Below, piece after piece: positions 195 through 51,098 of a stretch of DNA of 64,000 nucleotides (position 1 is its first letter; the number at the start of each line of letters is the position of its first letter). The position numbers and the translations under genes are program-made. The DNA lies in assembly GCA_016763155.1 (NCBI GenBank), contig JAESUH010000070.1, forward strand, positions 2,507-66,506, written 5' to 3'. The notes under the pieces were generated by a model. The model saw only the letters and a program-made list of their open reading frames with translations. It made no database searches and was not told where the DNA came from. The DNA comes from Rhizobiaceae bacterium. GTDB taxonomy: Bacteria; Pseudomonadota; Alphaproteobacteria; Rhizobiales; Rhizobiaceae.

Positions 195-1807
195 TGTGGG
201 AACCAATATTTTGGAATGTTGTCATTCTTTTTAATGACCACAAACTGATTTGCAAAAACCCTGTAAGGGGCGCTCCATGAATCATCGGGCCATTTGACCC
301 GGATATTTGCCCGCTCCGCTACGCCCAGGCCAACATGAATAAAACCAAGACTGCCGGATGCATGACCGCCACCGACGCCGACTTTTCGAACGCGGTTATT
401 ATTGCCGGACTTGATGGAGATGGTTGCTCCGATGGCATTTTTGTTTGGTCCGTCCTGCTGCAATTCGATTTGAACCCAATTGCCCATGGGGCGCGGGGAA
501 TTAGGGGCATCGCCACCCAGATTTGCAAACAGACTTACTGGCACTTCTCGATTGACCACGATCAGATCAAGCATACCATCCATGTTAAGATCAACAATGG
601 CTGCGCCGCGGCCGCGGGTATTTAAGCCGATTCCTGCTTTTTTCCCCGCTTCCTTAAACTTGCCGTCAAACTGTCCAAGCAGCATATTGTCGGGGTCATT
701 AGCTGTGAAATCTTTCATTTCAGCGACATTTCCCTTGGCAATAAAAAGGTCAAGTATGCCGTCATTATTGAAATCTGCAAACTCTGAATGCCAGCCAGTT
801 GAGGGTTTGAGGTCACCCCCCATATAGGGCCGGTGAGCCGTGGCGCCGCGCTCCCAGGCAATATCCAGATAGGCTGGTGCGCCATCTGCGTCACGGTCCA
901 GCATCTGGATTTTTGTGTCACCCATAGAGGTCAGGGCGTATTCGGGGAGGCCGTCACCATTGATATCAGCTTCTGCAATTCCCATGCCCCAGATGGTTAG
1001 TTTTTGCCAGCCATCCGCTCTGGTGTAGAGCTTGGGTGTTTTTTCCATTTTCCACATCTGCTCTTCGCCGCCACGATAGTATTGGCGGTCATTGGAAATA
1101 CGAAGAGCCGGTGTTCCTGATTTATTCCAGTCGGTGAAAATCATCGACAAGGCACAATATCCCGGAGTCAGCGCCAGCCTGTTGGAATAGTTGATGGTGG
1201 TGCCGGGGTTTGGGCGGTAGAGGAAATTGTCGTGGCAAGTGCCCCAAGGTGATCCCGGAGCATCGCGATCCACATAATTGCCGATTGCAAGGGTCGGGAA
1301 TTCTGCACCCTCTTCATGGGTTGCGGCAAAGGCTACGGACCATGCCTTGCCACCATCAAAAGCAAATTCTTCATTTGCTTTGGTGAAGCTGCAATCGGGG
1401 CCACCTTTTAGAAGAAGGTTTTCGCCAACACGCAAAAATATCAGATCCTTGAAACCGTCATTATTGATATCCAGAGGATAAACGCCGGTGACTTTTTTAA
1501 GTTCTTTTTCTGTGAGGTTTAGGCTTTTGAATTCGAATTTGAGGGCACCGCCCGTGCTGCTTTTATTGACGAATAATTGTGCCGGGTTGGTGCCGCCTGC
1601 CAAGGCAATATCGGGTCGTCGATCGCCATTGCAATCGAATGTCGCAACACCGCCGCCAACGAAATATTCCCAAGGCCCGGCATAGGTGTGATTGACGCCG
1701 GCCTGTTTTGCCTGTTCCTGCATGATAGGAACGTCCTGGGTTTCCGCCGCCAATGTGGCGGTAGAATAGAGCGCGAGGGCTGTAAAAAAGGAAACGAAGT
1801 TTCTCAT
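191..1807 (-). CDS. Secreted FG-GAP/VCBS-repeat beta-propeller protein with an ASPIC/UnbV-like C-terminus (CRTAC1 family)
   Basis: N-terminal signal peptide (MRNFVSFFTALALYSTATLAA). Repeated D-x-N-x-D-G-x-x-D calcium-type FG-GAP motifs (DINNDGFKD, DINGDGLPE, DFNNDGILD, DLNMDGMLD). C-terminal GGGHASG block typical of UnbV/ASPIC. ATGA overlap with the upstream gene. Confidence 0.75.
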   Translation of the reverse strand: MRNFVSFFTALALYSTATLAAETQDVPIMQEQAKQAGVNHTYAGPWEYFVGGGVATFDCNGDRRPDIALAGGTNPAQLFVNKSSTGGALKFEFKSLNLTEKELKKVTGVYPLDINNDGFKDLIFLRVGENLLLKGGPDCSFTKANEEFAFDGGKAWSVAFAATHEEGAEFPTLAIGNYVDRDAPGSPWGTCHDNFLYRPNPGTTINYSNRLALTPGYCALSMIFTDWNKSGTPALRISNDRQYYRGGEEQMWKMEKTPKLYTRADGWQKLTIWGMGIAEADINGDGLPEYALTSMGDTKIQMLDRDADGAPAYLDIAWERGATAHRPYMGGDLKPSTGWHSEFADFNNDGILDLFIAKGNVAEMKDFTANDPDNMLLGQFDGKFKEAGKKAGIGLNTRGRGAAIVDLNMDGMLDLIVVNREVPVSLFANLGGDAPNSPRPMGNWVQIELQQDGPNKNAIGATISIKSGNNNRVRKVGVGGGHASGSLGFIHVGLGVAERANIRVKWPDDSWSAPYRVFANQFVVIKKNDNIPKYWFPQ

Positions 1808-3216
1808 TGTTCAATCACCAACGTTTTTAGGAATGCAATAATGTTGTCACGGTCATCCTCGCTTAGAGCCATGTAATTGTCCCGCGATTGTTTCGCCTCG
1901 CCCCCATGGGCTTCGATAACTTCTCGCAACGTTGTCATGTCGCCGCGATGGCCATAGGGGCCAGTGGATGCGATGCCCCACAATTCACTCGTTGCAAATA
2001 CGCTGCGTTCAACAAAACGCTGGGAGAGGAGTTCATTGCCAAATTTATCGTTTTCAGCGTCCGTCATCGCGTGGCGTTTCAAATCACCAAACAGAGGCAC
2101 CATGAATTGGCCTTTGTCGTTTTTTGCAAGCTTCGTTGCCCAGCCGCGCAAGGCCAGATCATAAATGGCAGAGGCTTTTACTTCGCTGTCGCGAGTGGTG
2201 CCAGCTGCATCTACGGGGCCAGGATCAGAAAATTGTAAACTGTTGAGAGGCAGCGCTTTGATGTGGCAGCTCGAACATCGGATATCATCAAACAATGCGT
2301 CGCCTTTGGCCGCTGCTGTTTGCCAGACTTCTTGTTTGGGTTTTAATCGGGTTGGTGGCGCTAATGTGGCCTGCCATGCGACCAGAGCGGATATATCACC
2401 GGGCAATAATTCATTGGTAATGCCATCCTTGTCAAAATCATCTTCACCAGTCCAGCGTGTGCCGAAGCGTTCAACTGCCTGCATGCCGTGGTGGTGGTTG
2501 AGGGCGTTGATGGTAAACTGGCGCAGGGAGGTCATCACACCTTTTTGGCTGAAAGGGCGAATGACCAGATCCGTATCCAGTCCGTCCAGTTGCGAAAGAT
2601 CAACAAGACCATCAGGTGATGCCGACAACGTGCCGAAATCAACACCCTTTGTTGTCAGAGAAATTTCGACGGTTTTGTTGTTTTTACGCGCCTCATTTAA
2701 AGCCTGTTTTCGCAAGGCTACCAGATCGGCAGTCATCTCGCGGGCAAGTAATTCTATCAGCCCGGACCCCAGAACGTGGTTGGTGTTGCGTTCATTTGAA
2801 AACTGCGGATCGATGGAATCAGAACCTTGACTGTTGAACCCTTCTGATACGAAAACATTGGATACGAAATTTCCAGCCCCGCCGATAATTGGTTCATTGT
2901 GGCAGCTGGAGCAGGCATTGGAGTCGGTTCCGGTTACGCGGTTGAACTGTTGGGATGGCGGGCGTTTGCGCTTTGTTGGAATAATGGCCTGGGTAGCCAT
3001 TGGTCTGCCTGCGCCATCGGGCGTGGTGAATTTAGCAGAAAACAGTGCTTCACCCTGCTCTACCAATTGGTCCAGGGCCTGTTTGGATAAAACTCCCTGA
3101 GGCATTGGCACGTGGCCGCTGATGGCATTTTCCGACCATGGTTTATCAGCGGCAAGGCCAGAATTTGCATATAGCACAAGGGCGAAGAACGTGGCTGTTC
3201 GTAGTTTAAACTGCAA
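1804..3216 (-). CDS. DUF1111-family di-haem cytochrome c (peroxidase-like / thiol oxidoreductase-like) periplasmic protein
   Basis: Signal peptide; two CxxCH haem-binding motifs (ACSSCHNEP and RCSSCHIKAL); length about 470 aa. A TTG start at 3216 is needed to include the signal peptide, and it overlaps the 3' end of the ROK gene by 11 nt. Confidence 0.75.
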   Translation of the reverse strand: MQFKLRTATFFALVLYANSGLAADKPWSENAISGHVPMPQGVLSKQALDQLVEQGEALFSAKFTTPDGAGRPMATQAIIPTKRKRPPSQQFNRVTGTDSNACSSCHNEPIIGGAGNFVSNVFVSEGFNSQGSDSIDPQFSNERNTNHVLGSGLIELLAREMTADLVALRKQALNEARKNNKTVEISLTTKGVDFGTLSASPDGLVDLSQLDGLDTDLVIRPFSQKGVMTSLRQFTINALNHHHGMQAVERFGTRWTGEDDFDKDGITNELLPGDISALVAWQATLAPPTRLKPKQEVWQTAAAKGDALFDDIRCSSCHIKALPLNSLQFSDPGPVDAAGTTRDSEVKASAIYDLALRGWATKLAKNDKGQFMVPLFGDLKRHAMTDAENDKFGNELLSQRFVERSVFATSELWGIASTGPYGHRGDMTTLREVIEAHGGEAKQSRDNYMALSEDDRDNIIAFLKTLVIEQ

Positions 3217-4646: not shown

Positions 4647-5696
4647 ATGAAAAAACTTAGTACCGCCCTTATGGGTGCTGTATTTGCTGCGTCACTTGCT
4701 GGCTTTGCAGGAAATGCTATTGCAGCTGGCAAAACTATTGCCGTGTCTTGGAAAATTTTCCAGGAAGAACGCTGGAAAAGAGATGAAGCTGTTATCAAGG
4801 CAATCGTTGAAGCTGCTGGTGACAAATATATTTCTTCCGATGCACAGGGTTCTGCAGCTAAGCAGTTGACCGATATCGAATCTCTGATTGCTCAGGGTGC
4901 TGATGTTCTTTTGATCGTGCCTTTCGATTCCGAAGCCATTCTTCCTGCTGTTGATAAAGCTTCTGCTGAAGGCATTCCTATGATTGCCTATGATGTTCAG
5001 ATCGAGCATCCAGATTCACTTTACGTCACTTTCGACAACATTGGCGTTGGCCGTTTGATGGCTAAAGAAATGCTGAAAGTTAAAGACAGCGGAAACTTTG
5101 CCTTCATTAAAGGTGATCCAGGCGATCCAAATGCTACATTCTTGTTCCAGGGTATCATGGAAGTTTTGAAACCAAACATGGATGCCGGCAAAATCAAAAA
5201 CGTTGGCGAAGCATTCTCCGATGGTTGGAAGCCTGAAAATGCACAGCGCAACATGGAACAGATGCTTACAGCTAACGACAACAAAATCGATGCTGTGATT
5301 TCTGAAAATGATGGCATGGCTGGTGGCGTTGTTGCAGCACTTGCTGCACAGGGCATGGCCGGTACAGTTCCTGTAACAGGTCAGGATGGCGATCTTGCTG
5401 CTCTTAACCGTGTTGCAATTGGTACTCAGCTTGTATCAATCTGGAAAGATAGCCGCGCGCTTGGTAAAGTTGCTGCAGAAGCTGCTTTGATGCTTGCTAA
5501 TGGCAAAGCACTGAAAGACATTCCTGGTACTGCACCATTCTCAGGTGGCAAACGCGGTGTAACCGTTACTTCAATCCTGCTTGCTCCAACAGCAATCACC
5601 AAAGACACTCTTGGTAAAGTGATTGATGCTGGCTGGATCGACAAAGCAACTGCTTGTGCCGGTGCTGATGCTGCAATGGTTAGCGCTTGTAAATAA
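4647..5696 (+). CDS. xylF: D-xylose ABC transporter substrate-binding protein
   Basis: Signal peptide MKKLSTALMGAVFAASLAGFAGNAIA. Periplasmic sugar-binding (family 1 / CUT2) sequence. ATG 4647 is preceded by AGGGAG. Lies in a xylFHG-xylB-xylA context. Confidence 0.85.
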   Translation: MKKLSTALMGAVFAASLAGFAGNAIAAGKTIAVSWKIFQEERWKRDEAVIKAIVEAAGDKYISSDAQGSAAKQLTDIESLIAQGADVLLIVPFDSEAILPAVDKASAEGIPMIAYDVQIEHPDSLYVTFDNIGVGRLMAKEMLKVKDSGNFAFIKGDPGDPNATFLFQGIMEVLKPNMDAGKIKNVGEAFSDGWKPENAQRNMEQMLTANDNKIDAVISENDGMAGGVVAALAAQGMAGTVPVTGQDGDLAALNRVAIGTQLVSIWKDSRALGKVAAEAALMLANGKALKDIPGTAPFSGGKRGVTVTSILLAPTAITKDTLGKVIDAGWIDKATACAGADAAMVSACK

Positions 5697-5723
5697 GCTG
5701 TCAGCTAATTGAACTAAATATAA

Positions 5724-5758
5724 GCCGCGCCACCTCATTCAGGCGGCGCGGTTTTTTA
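5724..5758 (+). terminator. Rho-independent hairpin plus T-tract after xylF (intra-operon attenuator)
   Basis: Stem CCGCGCC (5725-5731) / GGCGCGG (5745-5751), followed by TTTTTT (5752-5757). Confidence 0.7.
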
Positions 5759-5812
5759 TCACTCTTTTATTTGAGCCATTAGTGCTTTTATGAATTCACC
5801 CGGGAGAACTTT

Positions 5813-7135
5813 ATGTCAGGTGATGCGCCAAATAACCGCCAAGAGAATGAAATTAAAGAAAGCGCTGTAATACGTTTTCTAAGGGCAACCGAAGTCGATA
5901 CCAGAATGTTGGGAATGATCGGTGCGCTTGTTTTGATCTGGGTTGGTTTTCATTATTACGGTAAAATATTTAATGGTTATGGCGCGTTTTTGACGCCGCG
6001 AAACCTTTGGAACCTATCAGTTCAAACCTCATCTATCGCTGTGATGGCGACCGGGATGGTGTTGGTGATTGTGACCAGACATATTGATTTGTCCGTGGGT
6101 TCCCTGCTTGGGGTTACTGCCATGGTTATGGGGGTAATACAGGTTTGGGTTTTGCCGCAGTTTTTAGGACTGGGTAGCCCCTATATCTGGATCATTACAG
6201 TTGCTGCCGGTTTGGCTTTTGGTGCACTGATTGGTGCATTTCACGGCCTGTTGATTGCCTATCTGGGTATCCCGGCCTTCATTGTAACGCTTGGCGGACT
6301 ATTGGTTTGGCGTGGCTCTGCCTGGTGGGTAGCGCGCGGTGAAACCATTGCACCGGTTGATGCAACATTTGCACTCATTGGTGGTGGTCCTTATGGCACG
6401 GTTGGTGCCACGGGTAGCTGGATTGTGGGGCTGCTTGGCTGTCTTGGCGTTGTCTTCCTGCTGGTTTCGGGCCGAAAACAGCGTGTCAGATTTGGGTTTC
6501 CCCTTCGTCCCGTGTGGGCGGAATGGTTGATTGGTGCGGTTGGTTCCGCGTTAATAATCGGCGCTGTTTTGGTGATGAACGCATATCCATGGCCGAAAGG
6601 TATTATCAAACGCTATGCGGCTGACAATAATATCGAAATTCCTGATGGTGGCATTTTCATATCTCACGGTTTTGCAATTCCGGTATTGATTGCGATTGCG
6701 GTTGGTATCTTTATGACCTTCCTGACCACGCGAACCAGATTCGGGCGCTATGTGTTTGCCATTGGTGGCAATCCGGAAGCAGCCGAACTTGCGGGTATTA
6801 ATACCAAGCGCATGACCATGTTGATCTTTGCCCTGATGGGCGGATTGACCGGTATTTCAGCAGTGATTGCCAGTGCGCGGCTAAATTCAGCAACCAATGC
6901 GCTGGGCCAATTTGACGAACTCTACGTGATTGCAGCAGCGGTTATCGGGGGAACTTCATTTGCTGGTGGTATTGGCACAATCTACGGAGCCATGCTGGGA
7001 GCGCTGGTGATGCAATCTTTGCAATCAGGCATGGTGCTTGTGGGCTTTGATTCAGCCATCCAGCAAATAGTGGTTGGCTGTGTTCTCGTGACTGCCGTTT
7101 ATATCGATACCCTGTATCGCAAGAATTCGACGTGA
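5813..7135 (+). CDS. xylH: Xylose ABC transporter permease
   Basis: Polytopic membrane protein of the CUT2 permease type (AraH/XylH-like). GGGAGA RBS. Adjacent to xylF and xylG. Confidence 0.85.
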
Positions 7136-7136
7136 G

Positions 7137-7937
7137 GTGAATAGAATGAACGCAACAGCAACAAATTCTGTGCCCATGGTTGAGATGAGAGACATCTCTA
7201 TCGCTTTTGGCGGGATCAAGGCGGTGGATCATGCCTCCGTTGAATTGTTCCCTAGTGAAGTGGTGGGCCTGCTCGGACATAATGGGGCGGGGAAATCCAC
7301 CCTTATTAAAATACTGTCCGGGGCTTATACTCGTGATACGGGCGAAATTCGCATTAATGGTGAAATTGCCCATATTGAAAATCCACGTGATGCCAAAGGC
7401 TATGGCATTGAAACCATCTACCAGACCTTGGCCTTGGCCGATAATCTGGATGCGGCGGCAAATCTCTTTTTGGGACGCGAATTGCGCACCAAATGGGGAA
7501 CGCTGGATGATGCGGCGATGGAATCTCGAGCCCGCCAAGTGATGGGTCGGCTTAATCCAAGATTTGAAAAATTCAAGGATCCTGTGAAGGCGCTATCCGG
7601 CGGACAGCGTCAATCCGTGGCGATCGCGCGGGCGATTTTGTTCAATGCCAGAATTTTGGTGATGGATGAACCGACAGCAGCTTTAGGCCCAGAGGAAACT
7701 GCGCAAGTTGCGGATCTTATTTTGCAGTTGAAAAAAGACGGTATCGGTATCTTCCTGATCAGTCACGATATTGAAGATGTGTTTGCATTGGCTGACCGGG
7801 TGGTTGTGATGAAGAACGGTGCCATTGTTGGAACAGCTAATACCGATGACGTCACCAAGGATGAAGTCCTGGGGATGATTATTGCCGGGAAGTGTCCGGC
7901 GAAAGCGATTTCTGGTCCCGGCGCAATAGTAGACTAA
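7137..7937 (+). CDS. xylG: Sugar (xylose) ABC transporter ATP-binding protein, single-cassette form
   Basis: Walker [10 protein letters not shown], signature LSGGQRQ, Walker [11 protein letters not shown]. Only one nucleotide-binding domain (about 265 aa). Start is GTG 7137 or ATG 7146. Confidence 0.8.
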
Positions 7938-40630: not shown

Positions 40631-41419
40631 CTATTTGGCGATCACCAATTCAGAAATAATCTCCGATTGCAGCCAGCCGGTGATGTGGCCTGCAACTCTG
40701 GCTGCTGCCGTATCTGCATCCTGCATGGTGGCTGCCATCTCGCAAAGGGTGGCAAAGCTTTGGCCTTGCTGCACCAAATCGATCAACATGCCTTCTTCGG
40801 CATTCAGGGGCCGATACTGGCACATCATGTTGTTGCGCCAGGCTAAGGTATAAAGGGGCTCATCAAGATTTTCAGGTTGCTCTGGTGTCTCGTCTTCAAC
40901 CAGAGCCATATATATGGCGAGCGCGTTGGTTTGTTGTTTTAGCAAACAACAGGAAGAATGTAGTTTGAAAGTTAAGCCAGTGACGAGTTCGGGCGGGATT
41001 GCTGCCAGATCATCCATGGTGGCGACATCATCATTGGAAGCGTCAAAGGCATCTTCAATGGCTTTTTCTATGGCTGCAATTTCGGCAAGAACCGGATGGG
41101 CACCAGCACTTTCATGATCGGAAAGGAATTTTGGAAAATATCTGCCAAACCAGCGCACATTTGGGTGGTTTGAGGGGTAGGCTTCTACATATTGAGCGGC
41201 CAGTTGATAAAATTGTTCATCGCCAACGAATTTCCATGTGTTCTCATAGTCTCCTGACAAAATTTCGATCAGGCGCGACAGATAGGCAAATTGATAAACG
41301 CCGAAGCGTTTTTCAGCAGTTGTATTTTCGGGCACTGAAATTCGCGGTAACGTGCCGTCCGTGCGTTTAAGAATATCGCTTTGCATTTGCGACTGAAGTT
41401 CTGCCAGTTTTTTTGCCAC
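40631..41419 (-). CDS. DUF2063-family partner protein of the MNIO enzyme (BufC/MbnC-like)
   Basis: DUF2063 pattern (RFGVYQFAYLSRLIEIL...YP...FG.YFP.FL). Its GTG start shares one base with the upstream TAG stop (TAGTG). Confidence 0.85.
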   Translation of the reverse strand: MAKKLAELQSQMQSDILKRTDGTLPRISVPENTTAEKRFGVYQFAYLSRLIEILSGDYENTWKFVGDEQFYQLAAQYVEAYPSNHPNVRWFGRYFPKFLSDHESAGAHPVLAEIAAIEKAIEDAFDASNDDVATMDDLAAIPPELVTGLTFKLHSSCCLLKQQTNALAIYMALVEDETPEQPENLDEPLYTLAWRNNMMCQYRPLNAEEGMLIDLVQQGQSFATLCEMAATMQDADTAAARVAGHITGWLQSEIISELVIAK

Positions 41420-42276
41420 TATGCTGCTGTCTCCAATTGTTCATGCGACAATACCCCAGATGCAATATGGCGGGCACGGTTTAATTCGTCCAACAATTCG
41501 GCTAGGGGCGGGATGTTATCGTCGCGCTCAATCATAGTCGATACAGGGCCGAAGCGCCTTAGGGCTTTTTCATAGAGGTCAAATACTTCGTCACAAACCG
41601 GCTGGTCGTGGGTATCGATGAGCACATCGTCGCCTTCGCTGTGGCCTGCGAGATGGAATTGCACAACCCGCTCAACCGGGATTTGGTCAATGAAATTGCC
41701 GTCGTCAAACTGGTGGTTTTGTCCTGAAACAAAGACGTTGTTTACATCCAGCAATAGCCAGCAATCGGCGCGTTTGGCAATTTCTGCAACAAAGGTCCAT
41801 TCATCCATTTCGGATTCTTCGAATTCGATATAGGAGGAAACGTTTTCAATGGCGATGCGGCGACCGAGGAAATCCTGCACTTGTTCAATGCGCGAGGCCA
41901 CGTGGTTCAACGCCTCTTCTGTATAGGGAATGGGCAGCAGATCGTGGAGATTTACCCCATGCACACCGGTCCAGCATAAATGATCAGAAATCCACTTTGG
42001 ATTAACCCGATCAGCCAGGGTTTTTAATCTCGTCAGATAATCCATATTCAAGGGAGCAGTTGATGCAATCGACATGGAAACCCCGTGCATGACGAGGGGA
42101 TATCGCTCCATAATTTGATCCAGCATTTTCAGCGGGCGACCACCTTCGACCATGTAGTTTTCAGAGATTATCTCAAACCAGTCGATGGGCAATTCAGATG
42201 TCGCTTCAAGAATTTCGGTATAATGCTGAGGTCTTAACCCCAGCCCAAAACCGAGAAATGGAGGCTTTTCAACCAT
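41419..42276 (-). CDS. DUF692 / UPF0276 multinuclear non-haem iron oxidase (MNIO; BufB/MbnB-like)
   Basis: LGFGLGLRPQHY, DWFEIISENYM, HGVSMSI, ISDHLCW, IENVSSY, LLLDVNN: the hallmark DUF692 TIM-barrel blocks. Confidence 0.9.
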   Translation of the reverse strand: MVEKPPFLGFGLGLRPQHYTEILEATSELPIDWFEIISENYMVEGGRPLKMLDQIMERYPLVMHGVSMSIASTAPLNMDYLTRLKTLADRVNPKWISDHLCWTGVHGVNLHDLLPIPYTEEALNHVASRIEQVQDFLGRRIAIENVSSYIEFEESEMDEWTFVAEIAKRADCWLLLDVNNVFVSGQNHQFDDGNFIDQIPVERVVQFHLAGHSEGDDVLIDTHDQPVCDEVFDLYEKALRRFGPVSTMIERDDNIPPLAELLDELNRARHIASGVLSHEQLETAA

Positions 42277-42365: not shown

Positions 42366-42399
42366 GAAAGCAAAAACTCGTCCGGGAAACCGGACGAGT
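42366..42399 (-). terminator. Strong hairpin plus U-tract between the precursor gene and the MNIO gene (attenuator)
   Basis: Perfect 10-bp stem ACTCGTCCGG / CCGGACGAGT (42376-42385 / 42390-42399) with a 4-nt loop. On the minus strand it is followed by TTTTGCTTTC. Confidence 0.65.
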
Positions 42400-42429: not shown

Positions 42430-42696
42430 TTACATTTGTGTAAGTGTGCCGCCTTTAGCTGTGCAATCTGCTTTGGTCATTTCCAAGAAGCCCTGGCCGC
42501 TGCAGCTGTTCAAGCCTTTGCAAGAAGATTTTGCAGTTTTACAAGCGCTCTGGCCTTTGCAAGAGTTTACGCCAAAGCACTGAATTTTTGCATCCTGTGC
42601 CATAGAAGGGGTAGCCATAGTCATTGCTGAACCTGCAATGGCAAGTGCAAATGCTGCTGCTGCAAGTGTAGCGCCTGATTTTCCGGTATGTTTCAT
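42430..42696 (-). CDS. Bufferin-like RiPP precursor: Sec signal peptide plus a 6-Cys core (BufA2 / 6-Cys class, DUF2282-related)
   Basis: MKHTGKSGATLAAAAFALAIAGSAMTMATPSMA | QDAKIQCFGVNSCKGQSACKTAKSSCKGLNSCSGQGFLEMTKADCTAKGGTLTQM. GGAG RBS 9 nt upstream of ATG 42696. Lies directly upstream of the DUF692-DUF2063 pair. Confidence 0.8.
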   Translation of the reverse strand: MKHTGKSGATLAAAAFALAIAGSAMTMATPSMAQDAKIQCFGVNSCKGQSACKTAKSSCKGLNSCSGQGFLEMTKADCTAKGGTLTQM

Positions 42697-42830
42697 AGAA
42701 CCAATTCTCCAAATAGTGTTTTCCCAAAACGGGTAAGTCACTTTGAGCAAGTTCAATGATGACTATCAATTAACGCTTTCGTGAAGTCGGGAATATAGTT
42801 CCATATTTTCCATAAGCTATTGATTTATAA

Positions 42831-42862
42831 TAAAAAATATCCGGGAGAATGCTCCCGGATAT
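42831..42862 (-). terminator. Rho-independent terminator of the SCP2 gene transcript
   Basis: 11-bp perfect stem ATATCCGGGAG / CTCCCGGATAT (42837-42862) with loop AATG. On the minus strand it is followed by a T-run (complement of A-run 42832-42837). Confidence 0.7.
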
Positions 42863-46404: not shown

Positions 46405-46902
46405 ATGATGGCTGATAAAATGAATCCAATTCGGGATACAGATGACGATGCGCGCATTCTTGCTCGCAAACTGATTGCGGAGGCAACTTTTGGCGCTATT
46501 GCGGTTCAGGAACCGGATACCGGCGTGCCGCTGGTGAGCCGTGTGGCGATTGCCACTGACCCTGAAGGCAGGCCGATATTTCTGGCCTCTGAACTTTCCA
46601 TTCATTCGAAATGCCTCGAACAAAACGGCAAGTGCTCTGTGCTTTTGGGAGAGCCCGGCAAGGGGGATCCGCTGGCCCATCCGCGCATAACCCTGATTTG
46701 CAATGCGGTGAAAATCGAACGCGGCTCAAAAGAAAGGGACCGCCTGCGCGATCCCTTTCTGGAGCAACACCCAAAGGCGAAGCTCTATATAGATTTTGGT
46801 GACTTCCATTTCTACCGATTGGAGATTGAACGGGCCAATCTCAATGGTGGATTTGGTAAAGCCTATCTTCTAACCGCGGAAGACTTTGCCGTTAATTCTT
46901 AA
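46405..46902 (+). CDS. Pyridoxamine 5'-phosphate oxidase-like / HugZ-family FMN- or haem-binding protein
   Basis: Split-barrel family pattern; 165 aa. Its 3' end overlaps the convergent allantoicase gene by 33 nt. Confidence 0.7.
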   Translation: MMADKMNPIRDTDDDARILARKLIAEATFGAIAVQEPDTGVPLVSRVAIATDPEGRPIFLASELSIHSKCLEQNGKCSVLLGEPGKGDPLAHPRITLICNAVKIERGSKERDRLRDPFLEQHPKAKLYIDFGDFHFYRLEIERANLNGGFGKAYLLTAEDFAVNS

Positions 46903-47913
46903 TCTGCTGACACCGCCATCTGGGCGGATGTTGAAGCGGATATGGGTGATGGGTTTTTGCGAGACAATCTTTTCAGAGTCATATTGATGGACGAAATCCA
47001 TCTGTAGTTTTTGCCCTGGCAAGATGACTTCCCAATTTTCTGAGGCTTCCAATTCTTCCGGTGAAAGATCTGTATTATGATCTGGCAAATATGCCCCAAG
47101 CACTTCGCCGGTTTCTGGATAGTTTCCTTTAAAATGCGCTGTGTCGATGGTAACCGATGATATGGTGCCGGCATGGCCCAGGCGGATGATGGTCCAGTCA
47201 TAGCCCGGCCCGCGGCGACGTGCTGTTTCCCAGCCATCGCCCATATTCACACCACGACCTGGTGTAAGCAGCTTTTCCGGTGAACCGTAATGTGAATCGG
47301 ACCAATGCAAGGGTTGTGCGCCGTGAAACAGGAAGGCCAGGTCGATCTCTTGATCGTCGGCCACTTTGCTCCAGTCAAAATGACTTTGGCCATAGACCCG
47401 CAACCGGGCAACGCCGCCATCTGGATAAATATGCAGGCGCAAATGGGTCCAGATTTCTTCACCCATTTTTTCAGGATCATCGATCGGTTTGAAATGATGA
47501 GAGTCGGGGCCAAGTTCCTTGGAGGATAATATCTCCTGCCAATCGGAATTCTCGTCCGGGGTTTCACCTTCCTCCAATTTCACTGCTTCGATGGAAGCTG
47601 CTGGCGCGTTATTTCCGGTAAAATGCGAGGTGTCGATATTAAAACCTGCGATTGAACCGGGGCGTGCCAATTGGATGATGGCCCAGTCATGGCCCGGTGT
47701 GCGTTTGCGTCGGGATTCCCAACCATCCATCCATTTGCCATTGTCATCAAATTTATCAGGAATGAAAACCGGAGCATCATCGCTCAACATGCGAGAGAGC
47801 GGCGCAAAAAATTCGTCCGATGTGGCGATAGCGCGCGCGCCAAGGCTGGCGGAGGCGAGGTTGATGGTGCCATTTACGAAATCAGGAAGGGGTGTTTGAT
47901 CAGGTTTTTGCAA
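46870..47913 (-). CDS. alc: Allantoicase
   Basis: Duplicated allantoicase repeat (SDEFFAP...GKWMDGWESRR and GDGWETARRR). Confidence 0.9.
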   Translation of the reverse strand: MQKPDQTPLPDFVNGTINLASASLGARAIATSDEFFAPLSRMLSDDAPVFIPDKFDDNGKWMDGWESRRKRTPGHDWAIIQLARPGSIAGFNIDTSHFTGNNAPAASIEAVKLEEGETPDENSDWQEILSSKELGPDSHHFKPIDDPEKMGEEIWTHLRLHIYPDGGVARLRVYGQSHFDWSKVADDQEIDLAFLFHGAQPLHWSDSHYGSPEKLLTPGRGVNMGDGWETARRRGPGYDWTIIRLGHAGTISSVTIDTAHFKGNYPETGEVLGAYLPDHNTDLSPEELEASENWEVILPGQKLQMDFVHQYDSEKIVSQKPITHIRFNIRPDGGVSRLRINGKVFRG

Positions 47914-47921
47914 GGCTAATT

Positions 47922-49340
47922 TTACTCCGGTAGTAGGTCGTTAAGGCGCAGACGGGCGATTTTTTCCACTTGCTGACAAGCGGTAGAAAATTCGGCATCG
48001 GCGTCATTGTTAATACGTGTTTTGAAGGCGCTCAATATTTCTGATTTGGATAGACCTTTTACCGCGATGATGAAAGGGAAACCAAATTTGGCGACATAGT
48101 CATTGTTGAGGCCGGTGAAAGTGGTGCGCTCTTCATCGGTAAGTGCGTCGAGACCGGCGGAGGCCTGTTCGCTGGTAGATTCAGCGGTGAGTTGCTTGGC
48201 AGCAGCTAGTTTTCCGGCCAGATCGGGGTGAGCGTTTAGGACGCCCAATCGTTCTTCATGGCTGGCAGAACGGAACTTTCTTGCCAAAGCCGAGTGAAGA
48301 CCTGCGACACTATCGTGGGCGGGTCCAAGTTCATCGGCATGGGCGCGTCCTGCAATCCAAGGGGAATTTTCAAAAACTCCGCCATATGCCTTGAGAAATG
48401 TTTGCTGCTCCATCCGGCTTGGTCGTTCGAACGGCCTATAGGGATGATGTTCAATCCAGTGATTGGCAATATCGATGCGACGCGGAAACCATACATTCTC
48501 GTGGCCCATGGCATATTCGATAAAACGCTTCAGCGCAGCAATACGGCCGGGACGCCCGACAAGGCGGCAATGGAGGCCGATATTGAATAATTTTGGTGCG
48601 CCTTCGCAGCCTTCCTCATAAAGAATGTCGAAAGAATCTTTTAGATAAGTGTAAAACGGATCGCCGCTGTTAAATCCCGCAGGGATGGCAAAGCGCATAT
48701 CATTGCTATCGAGGGTATAGGGAATGATTAGTAGCGGCTTTTCCCCGGTATCATGCCAATAGGGCAAATCGTCGGAATAAGAATCGGAGCAATAGGTAAT
48801 GCCTTTCTGCTCGGAAACCAGATCAACCGTATTTATCGAACAACGACCGGTGTACCAGCCCTGTGGTGCGCTGCCGGTTACTTCCTTGTGCAGCCGGATG
48901 GCTTCTACAATATCGGCGCGTTCATCCTCTGGCGCATAATCTTTATACTCAATCCATTTTAGGCCGTGGGAGGCTATTTCCCAACCGGCATCCTGCATGG
49001 CGGCAACCTGTTCCGGCGCGCGTGCAAGGGCTGTTGCCACTCCATAAACTGTGACCGGGATTTCCTTGCCGGTGAATAATTTGTGCAGACGCCAAAAGCC
49101 TGCGCGTGCACCATATTCATAGATGGTTTCCATGTTCCAGTGGCGTTGCCCCTGCCACTGGGCGGCCCCTACGATCTCGGAAAGAAATGCTTCAGATGCG
49201 GCATCCCCATGCAGAACATTGTTTTCGCCGCCTTCTTCATAATTGATGACGAACTGAACCGCTATTTTTGCGCCATTGGGCCATTTGGGGTCGAGACCGT
49301 TCGGGCCATTTCCGCGGAAATCTCTTGGATATCTGTTCAT
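47922..49340 (-). CDS. puuE: Fusion protein: allantoinase PuuE (polysaccharide-deacetylase type) plus OHCU decarboxylase
   Basis: The N-terminal ~300 aa show the PuuE pattern (WPNGAKIAVQFVINYEEGGEN). The C-terminal ~165 aa show the UraD pattern (HPDLAGK, ST.EQASAGLD, KFGFPFIIAVKG). Confidence 0.88.
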   Translation of the reverse strand: MNRYPRDFRGNGPNGLDPKWPNGAKIAVQFVINYEEGGENNVLHGDAASEAFLSEIVGAAQWQGQRHWNMETIYEYGARAGFWRLHKLFTGKEIPVTVYGVATALARAPEQVAAMQDAGWEIASHGLKWIEYKDYAPEDERADIVEAIRLHKEVTGSAPQGWYTGRCSINTVDLVSEQKGITYCSDSYSDDLPYWHDTGEKPLLIIPYTLDSNDMRFAIPAGFNSGDPFYTYLKDSFDILYEEGCEGAPKLFNIGLHCRLVGRPGRIAALKRFIEYAMGHENVWFPRRIDIANHWIEHHPYRPFERPSRMEQQTFLKAYGGVFENSPWIAGRAHADELGPAHDSVAGLHSALARKFRSASHEERLGVLNAHPDLAGKLAAAKQLTAESTSEQASAGLDALTDEERTTFTGLNNDYVAKFGFPFIIAVKGLSKSEILSAFKTRINNDADAEFSTACQQVEKIARLRLNDLLPE

Positions 49341-49427
49341 GTTTGTGCCGAAATAATTGAGATTGCAGTTTTATCGAAATTGCCATTGCCAAATAAGGTC
49401 AAAGTGTAAAAACTATATGTCACAAAA

Positions 49428-49439
49428 CCATGCGCATGG
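49428..49439. promoter_or_regulatory. Perfect 12-bp palindrome CCATGCGCATGG in the puuE/uraH divergent promoter region
   Basis: Read directly from the sequence; the function is inferred only. Confidence 0.35.
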
Positions 49440-49490
49440 GATGGAACCCAGTCAAGCGTATGGTAAGAAAAAATGAGGGACAATTAAAAT

Positions 49491-49847
49491 ATGAGCGGCT
49501 TCCTTACGACCCATGTTCTGGACACAGCCAGCGGAAAACCCGCAAGTGGCTTGGCAATAACGCTATATCGCGACAATAACGGCGAATTGGAAAAATTGAA
49601 ATCGGTAGTGACCAATGAAGATGGCCGCTGCGATGGACCAATTCTGGACCAGTCCGAATTTGCAATTGGCACCTATGAGTTACACTTTATGGCGGGAGAT
49701 TATCTCAAACGTCAGGGTGGTGATTTGCCTGACCCACTGTTTTTGGATGTGGTGCCAATTCGCTTTGGTATTGCAGATAAAACATCTCATTATCATGTGC
49801 CTCTGCTGATTTCAGCCTTTGGCTATTCAACCTATCGGGGGAGCTAA
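49491..49847 (+). CDS. uraH: 5-hydroxyisourate hydrolase (transthyretin-like)
   Basis: [14 protein letters not shown]-terminus and C-terminal YRGS signature. Confidence 0.93.
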
Positions 49848-49850
49848 ACC

Positions 49851-51098
49851 ATGTGGCCAATAGCTTGGGACTGGATGAGTCTTGCAATTCGCTGGGTGCA
49901 TATTATCACCGGCATTGCGTGGATCGGATCGTCGTTTTATTTCATCGCGCTTGATCTTAGCCTGAAAAAACACAAAGGCCTGCCCGAAGGGGTTGGCGGT
50001 GATACCTGGCAGGTGCATGGGGGTGGTTTTTACCACATGCAAAAATATACAGTAGCGCCTGCCTCCATGCCGGAAGAGCTGACATGGTTCAAATGGGAAT
50101 CCTATGCCACATGGATTTCCGGCTTCTTTATGATTTGCGTTCTCTATTACGGTTCATCAGAGCTGTTTTTGATTGATCGCAATGTTGCGGATTTAAGCCA
50201 GTGGCAGGCCATCGGGCTTGGCTTTGGCGGCATGTTGCTTGGCTGGGTGCTTTATGATCAGCTTTGCAAATCTCCCATCGGCAAGAACGACAATCTGCTT
50301 TCCATATTGGTGTTTATCTTTACGGTGGCAATTGGCTGGGGCTTTTTGCAGGTGTTTTCCGGGCGTGGGGCATTTGTCCACACTGGCGCGCTGATTGCGA
50401 CCATCATGTCAGCCAATGTGATCATGATTATCATTCCTAACCAGAAGAAAACCGTTGCGTCCCTGCTGGCAGGAGAAGCGCCTGATCCGTCTCTTGGCCT
50501 GCAGGCCAAGCAGCGTTCAATGCATAATAATTATCTCACCTTGCCGGTGTTGTTCCTGATGCTATCGAACCATTATCCGCTGGCTTATGCCACCAAATAT
50601 GCGTGGATCATCATCGCGCTGGTGCTGGTGATTGGCGTGGTAATTCGCCACTTTTTCAACATGCATCATGCCAAAAAGGGTGAGCCTTTCTGGACATGGC
50701 TGGTGGCGACGATTTGCTTCATTCTCATCATGTGGCTGTCACAGGCGGGACCTGTAAACCATGAGGAAGCCGCAAGCTCTACCCACGCGCCAACGGCAAT
50801 TGAAGAGAAATTGGCAAGTGCCGAAAATTTCGAAATGGTGCGCGACATAGTGCTTGGCCGCTGTTCCATGTGCCACGCACAAGAACCCGGCTGGGAAGGC
50901 ATCCCTTTCCCACCCAAAAGCGTGGTGCTGGAAGAAGACAAAGACATCATCCGCCACGCAGAACTAATCTACAAACAAGCCGCAATCACCAACGCCATGC
51001 CGCCGGGGAATTTAAGTTTTATTACGATGGAAGAGCGTGCTGTTCTGGCAAAATGGTATGAGGAGGCGATAGGGTCTCCACGGCATTTTTTGTGGTGA
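49851..51098 (+). CDS. puuD: Membrane-bound urate hydroxylase PuuD (C-terminal cytochrome c domain)
   Basis: Polytopic N-terminal domain (IRWVHIITGIAWIGSSFYF) plus a C-terminal CSMCH haem motif. Lies in the ureide cluster. Confidence 0.85.
   Translation: MWPIAWDWMSLAIRWVHIITGIAWIGSSFYFIALDLSLKKHKGLPEGVGGDTWQVHGGGFYHMQKYTVAPASMPEELTWFKWESYATWISGFFMICVLYYGSSELFLIDRNVADLSQWQAIGLGFGGMLLGWVLYDQLCKSPIGKNDNLLSILVFIFTVAIGWGFLQVFSGRGAFVHTGALIATIMSANVIMIIIPNQKKTVASLLAGEAPDPSLGLQAKQRSMHNNYLTLPVLFLMLSNHYPLAYATKYAWIIIALVLVIGVVIRHFFNMHHAKKGEPFWTWLVATICFILIMWLSQAGPVNHEEAASSTHAPTAIEEKLASAENFEMVRDIVLGRCSMCHAQEPGWEGIPFPPKSVVLEEDKDIIRHAELIYKQAAITNAMPPGNLSFITMEERAVLAKWYEEAIGSPRHFLW

Follow-up and report, generated by a model that had tools for sequence, protein, structure and literature searches.

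The minus strand of the 64,000-nt stretch of Rhizobiaceae DNA analyzed here (the window) carries a small ORF, bufA2, with two further genes, bufB and bufC, downstream of it (Table 1). Translation of bufA2 gives MKHTGKSGATLAAAAFALAIAGSAMTMATPSMAQDAKIQCFGVNSCKGQSACKTAKSSCKGLNSCSGQGFLEMTKADCTAKGGTLTQM (88 aa), the same sequence as that quoted in the first-pass annotation. The spacer between bufA and bufB, both of which lie on the same strand, is 153 nt long. The GTG start of bufC overlaps the TAG stop of bufB by 1 nt (TAGTG, 41417-41421; junction CATAGTGGC), an overlap suggestive of coupled translation of maturase and partner. The flanking genes, none of them related to metals, encode an ABC transporter, a creatinase/M24 protein, an SCP2 protein, an acyl-CoA synthetase, a threonine dehydratase and proteins of purine catabolism; no copper-related gene or regulator was found near bufA2. 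The purine/urate catabolism group (46870-51098), which comprises an allantoicase, a polysaccharide-deacetylase/OHCU-decarboxylase fusion and a protein with the Pfam Urate_ox_N domain, is unrelated to the bufferin cluster. The nearest genomes are those of marine Hyphomicrobiales/Rhizobiaceae MAGs, with 86-90% identity.

Table 1. Features of the bufA2 locus and of the encoded precursor, with positions in the window.
Feature	Positions	Strand	Basis or details
bufC, DUF2063 partner, 262 aa	40631..41419	minus	Pfam DUF2063 (PF09836), 69 bits (cut-off 27.2)
bufB, MNIO (DUF692) maturase, 285 aa	41419..42276	minus	NF050167 MNIO_BufB, 392.6 bits (cut-off 310); Pfam MbnB_TglH_ChrH, E 1e-115
Terminator-like hairpin (10-bp stem, 7 G-C pairs, 4-nt loop) with TTTTTGCTTTC	42366..42399 (hairpin 42399-42376)	minus	bufA-bufB spacer; terminator scan
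bufA2, 88-aa bufferin-2 precursor ORF	42430..42696	minus	ATG at 42696, stop 42432..42430; NF050166, homologues, third-position substitutions
Core, residues 34-88, 55 aa with six Cys	42433..42597	minus	Core-only search, Cys alignment
Internal repeat unit 2, residues 55-69, AKSSCKGLNSCSGQG (Cys IV, Cys V)	42490..42534	minus	Self-match, hhalign
Internal repeat unit 1, residues 36-50, AKIQCFGVNSCKGQS (Cys I, Cys II)	42547..42591	minus	Self-match, hhalign
Sec-type signal peptide, residues 1-33 (n-region MKHTGK, Ala-rich h-region, c-region TPSMA)	42598..42696	minus	Rule-based n/h/c criteria and family columns; predicted cleavage A33/Q34
Shine-Dalgarno sequence GGAGA	42706..42710	minus	9 nt 5' of the bufA2 ATG; invariant in L001-L003
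Bidirectional terminator-like hairpin, 11-bp stem	42837..42862	.	Between the SCP2-domain gene (43260-42964, minus) and bufA; position conserved in L001-L003

A longer, TTG-initiated ORF of 108 aa was ruled out as the gene, because the homologues begin at the Met of the 88-aa ORF and because nucleotide conservation relative to three related genomes (L001-L003) climbs steeply at its ribosome-binding site and ATG. Pairwise comparison of bufA2 with three related genomes yielded 9/3/32, 8/5/29 and 10/4/40 substitutions at the first, second and third codon positions, respectively. Most substitutions thus fall at the third position, and the frame is therefore under purifying selection.

The encoded protein matches the NCBIfam equivalog model NF050166 ("BufA2 family periplasmic bufferin-type metallophore") with 95.6 bits at a cut-off of 60, residues 8-85 being aligned with positions 1-78 of the 79 in the model. 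Published defining features of Buf2 (BUF_6/12Cys) are a Sec signal peptide, six Cys and pairing with MNIO/DUF2063 genes (PMC11626156, PMC12452194). The 88-aa protein is an ordinary member of BufA2 (BUF_6/12Cys, bufferin 2), a kind already known, and its description in the first-pass annotation as an MNIO-associated 6-Cys bufferin-type RiPP precursor is borne out by family HMMs, synteny and the Cys pattern. The full-length query retrieved 732 homologous proteins (90% clustering), and the core alone retrieved 1176 clusters (50% identity, E<=1e-3), two-domain 12-Cys forms among them.

Two other families of MNIO-associated peptides were considered and rejected. Membership in the oxazolin/Buf_EGKCG family was discarded since BufA2 has no EGKCG motif and its MNIO reaches 295.9 bits with the HvfB model (cut-off 360); membership in the methanobactins was discarded since the MNIO reaches 77.9 bits with the MbnB model (cut-off 325) and the precursor combines a signal peptide with a core of 55 aa. 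A sub-threshold match to Pfam DUF7640 (18 bits versus 28.1) covers residues 35-67 (window positions 42496-42594) and recurs in 18 of 25 family members; it may stem from distant relatedness between Cys-rich proteins or from composition. The 511-aa protein P0229, a hit of the core-only search, joins three domains: a SAM methyltransferase (N-terminal), a MerC membrane domain and Buf2 (C-terminal). Fusions of MerC with Buf2 are known (PMC12452194), and we found no mention of an added methyltransferase in that study.

The association with an MNIO enzyme, which had been proposed from the sequence, was confirmed by matches above the cut-offs to the BufB and DUF2063 models directly downstream of bufA2 (Table 1). 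BufC exceeds the cut-off of the generic DUF2063 model only; HvfC is the one NCBIfam partner model that it matches, weakly (37 bits, below the cut-off). No DoxX gene, no BufA1/DUF2282 gene and no further copy of bufA, bufB or bufC was found within the window, which fits the buf2ABC type, and the cluster layout contains no sigma/anti-sigma pair. Published buf2ABC clusters are without bufD and typically without sigma/NrsF genes (PMC12452194).

The order bufA-bufB-bufC is kept in 45 of 80 related genomic loci, which come from Alpha-, Gamma- and 'Delta'-proteobacteria. In 33 of the 80 loci a bufA2-like gene stands alone, with neither BufB nor BufC encoded within about 6 kb, and stand-alone precursor genes have also been reported for bufferins (PMC12452194). 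Both observations would suit a secreted mini-protein rich in Cys that stays unmodified, has three disulfides or metallothionein-like thiolate sites and is not an MNIO substrate. For the gene in the window this is extremely improbable: bufB follows it 153 nt further downstream on that strand, in the arrangement kept in the 45 loci, the bufA2 product passes the BufA2 equivalog model, and the characterized homologue is modified at four central Cys (PMC11626156).

Several related loci have more elaborate arrangements. Five of them (L015, L031, L037, L069 and L076; at about 5400-6800) contain two or three tandem bufA2-like genes before a single bufB-bufC pair. An alphaproteobacterial MAG (L007) has a complete buf1 cluster at 727-3162 (DUF2282, MNIO, DUF2063, DoxX) and, about 3 kb downstream, buf2ABC at 6001-7884. 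Second MNIO/DUF2063 pairs or DUF2282 ORFs are present in four loci (L043, L079, L019 and L044).

The signal peptide of BufA2 was called with rule-based n/h/c criteria and family alignment statistics (121 sequences). The n-region is basic (K2, H3 and K6; net charge +2), the h-region is Ala-rich with a mean Kyte-Doolittle value of ~2.3-2.5 in 12-residue windows (residues 9-22), and the c-region has P30 at -4, S31 at -3 and A33 at -1, which gives the predicted site SMA/QD and a 55-aa core; TMA28/T is an alternative -3/-1 site. Inspection of the N-terminal sequence revealed neither a twin-arginine motif nor a lipobox Cys. In the family, position -1 is Ala in 97 of 121 sequences, -3 is small (A/V/S/T) in 99 of 121 and -4 is Pro in 71 of 121, and all 119 homologues with a complete N-terminus share the n/h/c layout. 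The cleavable Sec signal, the cleavage site and the mature region of ~55 aa that had been read from the sequence at first pass are thus upheld, by rule, through the n/h/c architecture and the -3/-1 positions, both conserved in the family. That reading had also held a Sec signal in place of a RiPP leader to be unusual. This part did not stand, since a Sec signal on the precursor is a published hallmark of Buf2 and therefore not new.

An older annotation as "predicted integral membrane protein", the name "uncharacterized membrane protein" given to some relatives, and the length of the uncharged N-terminal stretch (27 residues) would agree with an uncleaved signal-anchor that tethers the Cys-rich domain to the inner membrane. 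Membrane attachment does occur in the family, as about 16% of Buf2 proteins are lipoproteins (PMC12452194). Nevertheless, a signal-anchor is very unlikely here, since Pro at -4 and small residues at -3/-1 are conserved across the family, BufA2 has no lipobox Cys, and the C. vibrioides bufferins, whose signal peptide exports a reporter, are cleaved at the predicted signal-peptidase site according to MS (PMC11626156).

The signal peptide of BufA2, read as cleavable, is also conserved in sequence. S7, G8, A12, A14 and A15 show almost no variation among 120 homologues (window positions 42655-42696, given as residues 1-15), a set that is biased because it was retrieved with the full-length query, and the NF050166 model spans the signal peptide from residue 8 onwards. 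Among 93 representatives selected by the core, 13 have the strict leader motif SG-x-x-L-A-A-A, and a looser Ala-rich pattern, T/S-G-x-x-L-A-x-A-A, is common. It is reported by Junger et al. (ACS Chem Biol 2026) that the Sec signal peptide of bufferins doubles as a leader and that precursor recognition lies at least partly within this signal peptide/leader. The conservation seen here at the sequence level fits such a dual role; given that the strict motif occurs in only 13 of 93 representatives, it is consistent with a leader function and is not independent proof of it.

The six Cys of BufA2 (residues 40, 46, 52, 59, 65 and 78) are separated by gaps of 5, 5, 6, 5 and 12 residues, i.e., C-x5-C-x5-C-x6-C-x5-C-x12-C, and the corresponding columns vary little or not at all among 120-121 homologues. 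Exactly this spacing was found in 119 of 160 domains (50%-identity representatives from the core-only search), and variation in these domains is confined to the gaps III-IV (6-8) and V-VI (12-13). The spacing given in the first-pass annotation is therefore right and represents the majority pattern among homologues. In the same 160 domains Cys II, IV and V stand in N-x-C-K-G, Cys III in [SN]-x-C-K-[TS], Cys I in V-[HK]-C-x-G and Cys VI in x-[DE]-C, so that the motif [NS]-x-C-K-[GT] marks Cys II-V. In C. vibrioides Buf2 a mass shift of -18 Da was explained by four times -4 on the four central Cys plus one S-S bond, Cys I and VI being unmodified and thought to be disulfide-bonded (PMC11626156). 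The Cys in x-C-K-[GT] are the same four that carry the -4 Da shift, and the short motif thus tracks the modification sites. The calculated monoisotopic mass of the BufA2 core is 5649.59 Da unmodified and 5631.45 Da in the mature form, and would be 5614.43 Da with Q34 cyclized.

The core also contains an internal repeat. Its top ungapped self-match pairs residues 36-59 (AKIQCFGVNSCKGQSACKTAKSSC) with residues 55-78 (AKSSCKGLNSCSGQGFLEMTKADC) at an offset of 19 with a BLOSUM62 score of 62, which was reached in none of 2000 full shuffles (mean 22, max 44) and in none of 2000 shuffles with fixed Cys (mean 29, max 58); weaker peaks of self-identity at offsets 6, 13 and 25 point to a finer periodicity. 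About 106 and 116 distinct sequences went into the profiles of the two halves, which hhalign aligned in register over 15 columns, A-x3-C-x-G-x-N-s-C-K-G-Q-[SG] (probability 95.9%, P 6e-9). The 19-residue repeat A-x3-C-x-G-x-N-x-C-K-G-Q is a family-wide property beyond chance, and the shuffles and the half-profile alignment thus substantiate the internal duplication noticed in the sequence at first pass. Its interpretation as a duplicated recognition motif for the MNIO enzyme is only partly apt: the short motif does match the four modified Cys, but the repeat at offset 19 pairs the unmodified Cys I with the modified Cys IV.

The C-terminal KADCTAKGGTL had been likened to the tail of DUF2282-type peptides. 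BufA2 does not belong to Pfam DUF2282 (PF10048) or BufA1, as neither it nor 24 relatives gave a match at E<=10 and it has six Cys, not four; a DUF2282 ORF from L007, used as a control, scored 89 bits on PF10048. In BLASTP, BufA2 and the DUF2282 protein of L007 aligned with 17.7 bits (E 0.015), the tail lying outside the alignment. At the profile level, hhalign aligned the Buf2 core with 11 DUF2282 ORFs from related loci over 47 columns through the last Cys and the tail (probability 82%, P 1e-5). The relationship is thus visible with profiles and not with pairwise BLASTP, and the resemblance of the tail holds at the profile level without membership in the DUF2282 family. The tail C-x3-GG is aligned (CEKLGGSL in L079, CTAKGGTL in BufA2), and F70 of BufA2 is aligned with a conserved Trp of DUF2282.

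In the same alignment Cys I, III, IV and VI of Buf2 correspond to Cys I, II, III and IV of Buf1, and Cys II and V, each of which lies inside the repeated motif G-x-N-x-C-K-G-Q, have no counterpart. BufA1 (DUF2282/PF10048) resembles BufA2 in that a signal peptide precedes a small folded core, whose outer Cys form a disulfide and whose inner Cys are converted to thiooxazoles by MNIO and DUF2063 proteins; an aromatic residue (W versus F70) and, in some members, a tail of the C-x3-GG type are also shared. It differs in having four Cys instead of six, and Buf1 clusters usually add DoxX and often SigF/NrsF. As a tentative reading, which we regard as possible though rather doubtful, the Buf2 core could represent a four-Cys scaffold of the Buf1 type with two copies of a 19-residue module, which would add the modifiable Cys II and V on either side of the ancestral central pair. 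We found neither the 19-residue repeat nor the mapping of Buf1 and Buf2 Cys described in PMC11626156 or PMC12452194. If the two-module reading is true, Buf2 would contain two pseudo-symmetric pairs of thiooxazoles, giving a second copper site or a site with four heterocycles, in contrast to the single two-heterocycle site of Buf1.

An AF2 model of BufA2, built from a 120-sequence alignment, was of low confidence (mean pLDDT 60.5). It has strands at residues 38-41 and 70-73 and helices at 49-53 and 75-80, with Cys40 in the first strand and Cys78 in the second helix. The published Buf2 fold consists of a two-stranded sheet and a short helix joined by the outer disulfide (PMC11626156), and the layout of the low-confidence model resembles this description. 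The Cys-rich loop was poorly predicted, as expected because its final shape depends on the heterocycles and the metal. No sequence relative of BufA2 was found in the PDB and Foldseek gave no fold match for the model; in view of this and of the low confidence, we make no structural reading of the half-repeats.

The terminator-like hairpin between bufA and bufB (Table 1) folds at the RNA level with z = -4.1 relative to shuffled sequence. In L001-L003 compensatory substitution (T>C / A>G) retains the stem, the T-tract is invariant, and a strict terminator-like hairpin is present in the bufA-bufB spacer of 15 of the 45 syntenic loci. A partial terminator that gives an excess of precursor over enzyme is familiar in other RiPP operons. 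Judged by its sequence, the hairpin probably is such a partial terminator or attenuator that sets a high precursor-to-enzyme ratio: together with the U-tract it would halt most transcripts, so that precursor mRNA would exceed enzyme mRNA.

On the other side of bufA, the bidirectional hairpin separates the SCP2-domain gene from bufA, which is therefore regarded as its own transcription unit. A 31-nt block 5' of bufA (42759-42789; CGACTTCACGAAAGCGTTAATTGATAGTCAT on the minus strand) is nearly invariant in the window and L001-L003, and its flanks vary; it may be a promoter or an operator. The sigma-70 scan detected nothing on the minus strand upstream of bufA. The Caulobacter SigF promoter, GTAACC-N16-CGAA (PMC3511200), has no match upstream of bufA or in the 31-nt block, and the whole window contains 29 matches to the SigF motif versus 37.8 expected.

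Among characterized systems, Buf2 of C. vibrioides is similar both in the precursor and in the cluster. Its BufA2 (CCNA_03001) is described as starting likewise with a Sec signal peptide, the cores of the two proteins measure about 55-61 aa and contain six conserved Cys, and its operon has the order bufA-bufB(MNIO)-bufC(DUF2063) with neither DoxX nor adjacent sigma/anti-sigma genes. The gene in the window differs in belonging to another host lineage and in that no SigF-type promoter was detected upstream.

Oxazolin (HvfA, Buf_EGKCG) and bulbicupramide (MmrA) share with BufA2 an N-terminal signal or leader region (Sec in HvfA) and repeated Cys motifs; they acquire 5-thiooxazoles through an MNIO/DUF2063(RRE) pair and bind copper, properties that we ascribe to BufA2 by homology. 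In these peptides EGKCG occurs in 17-residue repeats of variable copy number, predicted to form a beta-helix or to be disordered, whereas in BufA2 N-x-C-K-G lies within a fixed six-Cys domain. In the methanobactin system (MbnA/MbnBC), too, an MNIO and a partner oxidize Cys of a ribosomal peptide to a copper-binding heterocycle, but MbnA has a classical leader without a Sec signal and a short core, the chemistry is that of oxazolone/thioamide, and the product is exported as a chalkophore.

We conclude that the ORF is very probably bufA2 and encodes the precursor in a buf2ABC cluster of three genes carried by a marine Hyphomicrobiales-like alphaproteobacterium; for the modification chemistry, the choice of Cys, the cleavage, the export and the copper ligand we infer from homology to C. 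vibrioides Buf2 the following course. The 88-aa precursor would be synthesized in the cytoplasm and bound by BufB and BufC, the former a multinuclear non-haem iron oxidase and the latter a DUF2063 protein with an RRE-like domain, partly via the unusually conserved signal peptide acting as a leader. The two proteins would oxidize the central Cys 46, 52, 59 and 65, each in [NS]-x-C-K-[GT], to 5-thiooxazoles. The peptide would then be exported by Sec and cleaved by signal peptidase I after A33, the Cys40-Cys78 disulfide would form in the periplasm, and the mature small protein of 55 aa would sequester excess copper.

Expression of C. vibrioides Buf2 is copper-induced and protects against copper (PMC11626156). 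A related MNIO/DUF2063 cluster in Microbulbifer is not copper-responsive (PMC12538549), and the physiological trigger or the metal may therefore differ. The Microbulbifer result would also agree with a genuine BufA2-type modified peptide whose role is other than copper buffering and concerns another soft metal, or redox or oxidant stress. The same holds for the neighborhood of bufA2, where no copper gene, regulator or SigF-type promoter was found, and for the MerC-Buf2 fusions, which point to mercury in some relatives (PMC12452194; P0229). Such a role is nonetheless unlikely, since thiooxazoles mediate copper binding in both characterized bufferins as well as in oxazolin and bulbicupramide, which are related.

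The gene adds an environmental case, found in a marine alphaproteobacterium, to a widespread class of periplasmic metal-defence peptides, and standard annotation pipelines would name bufA2 already. The internal repeat, the mapping of Buf1 Cys to Buf2 Cys and the bufA-bufB hairpin are minor additions that leave the picture of the family unchanged; they could steer Cys-scanning, metal-stoichiometry and expression experiments on Buf2 peptides.
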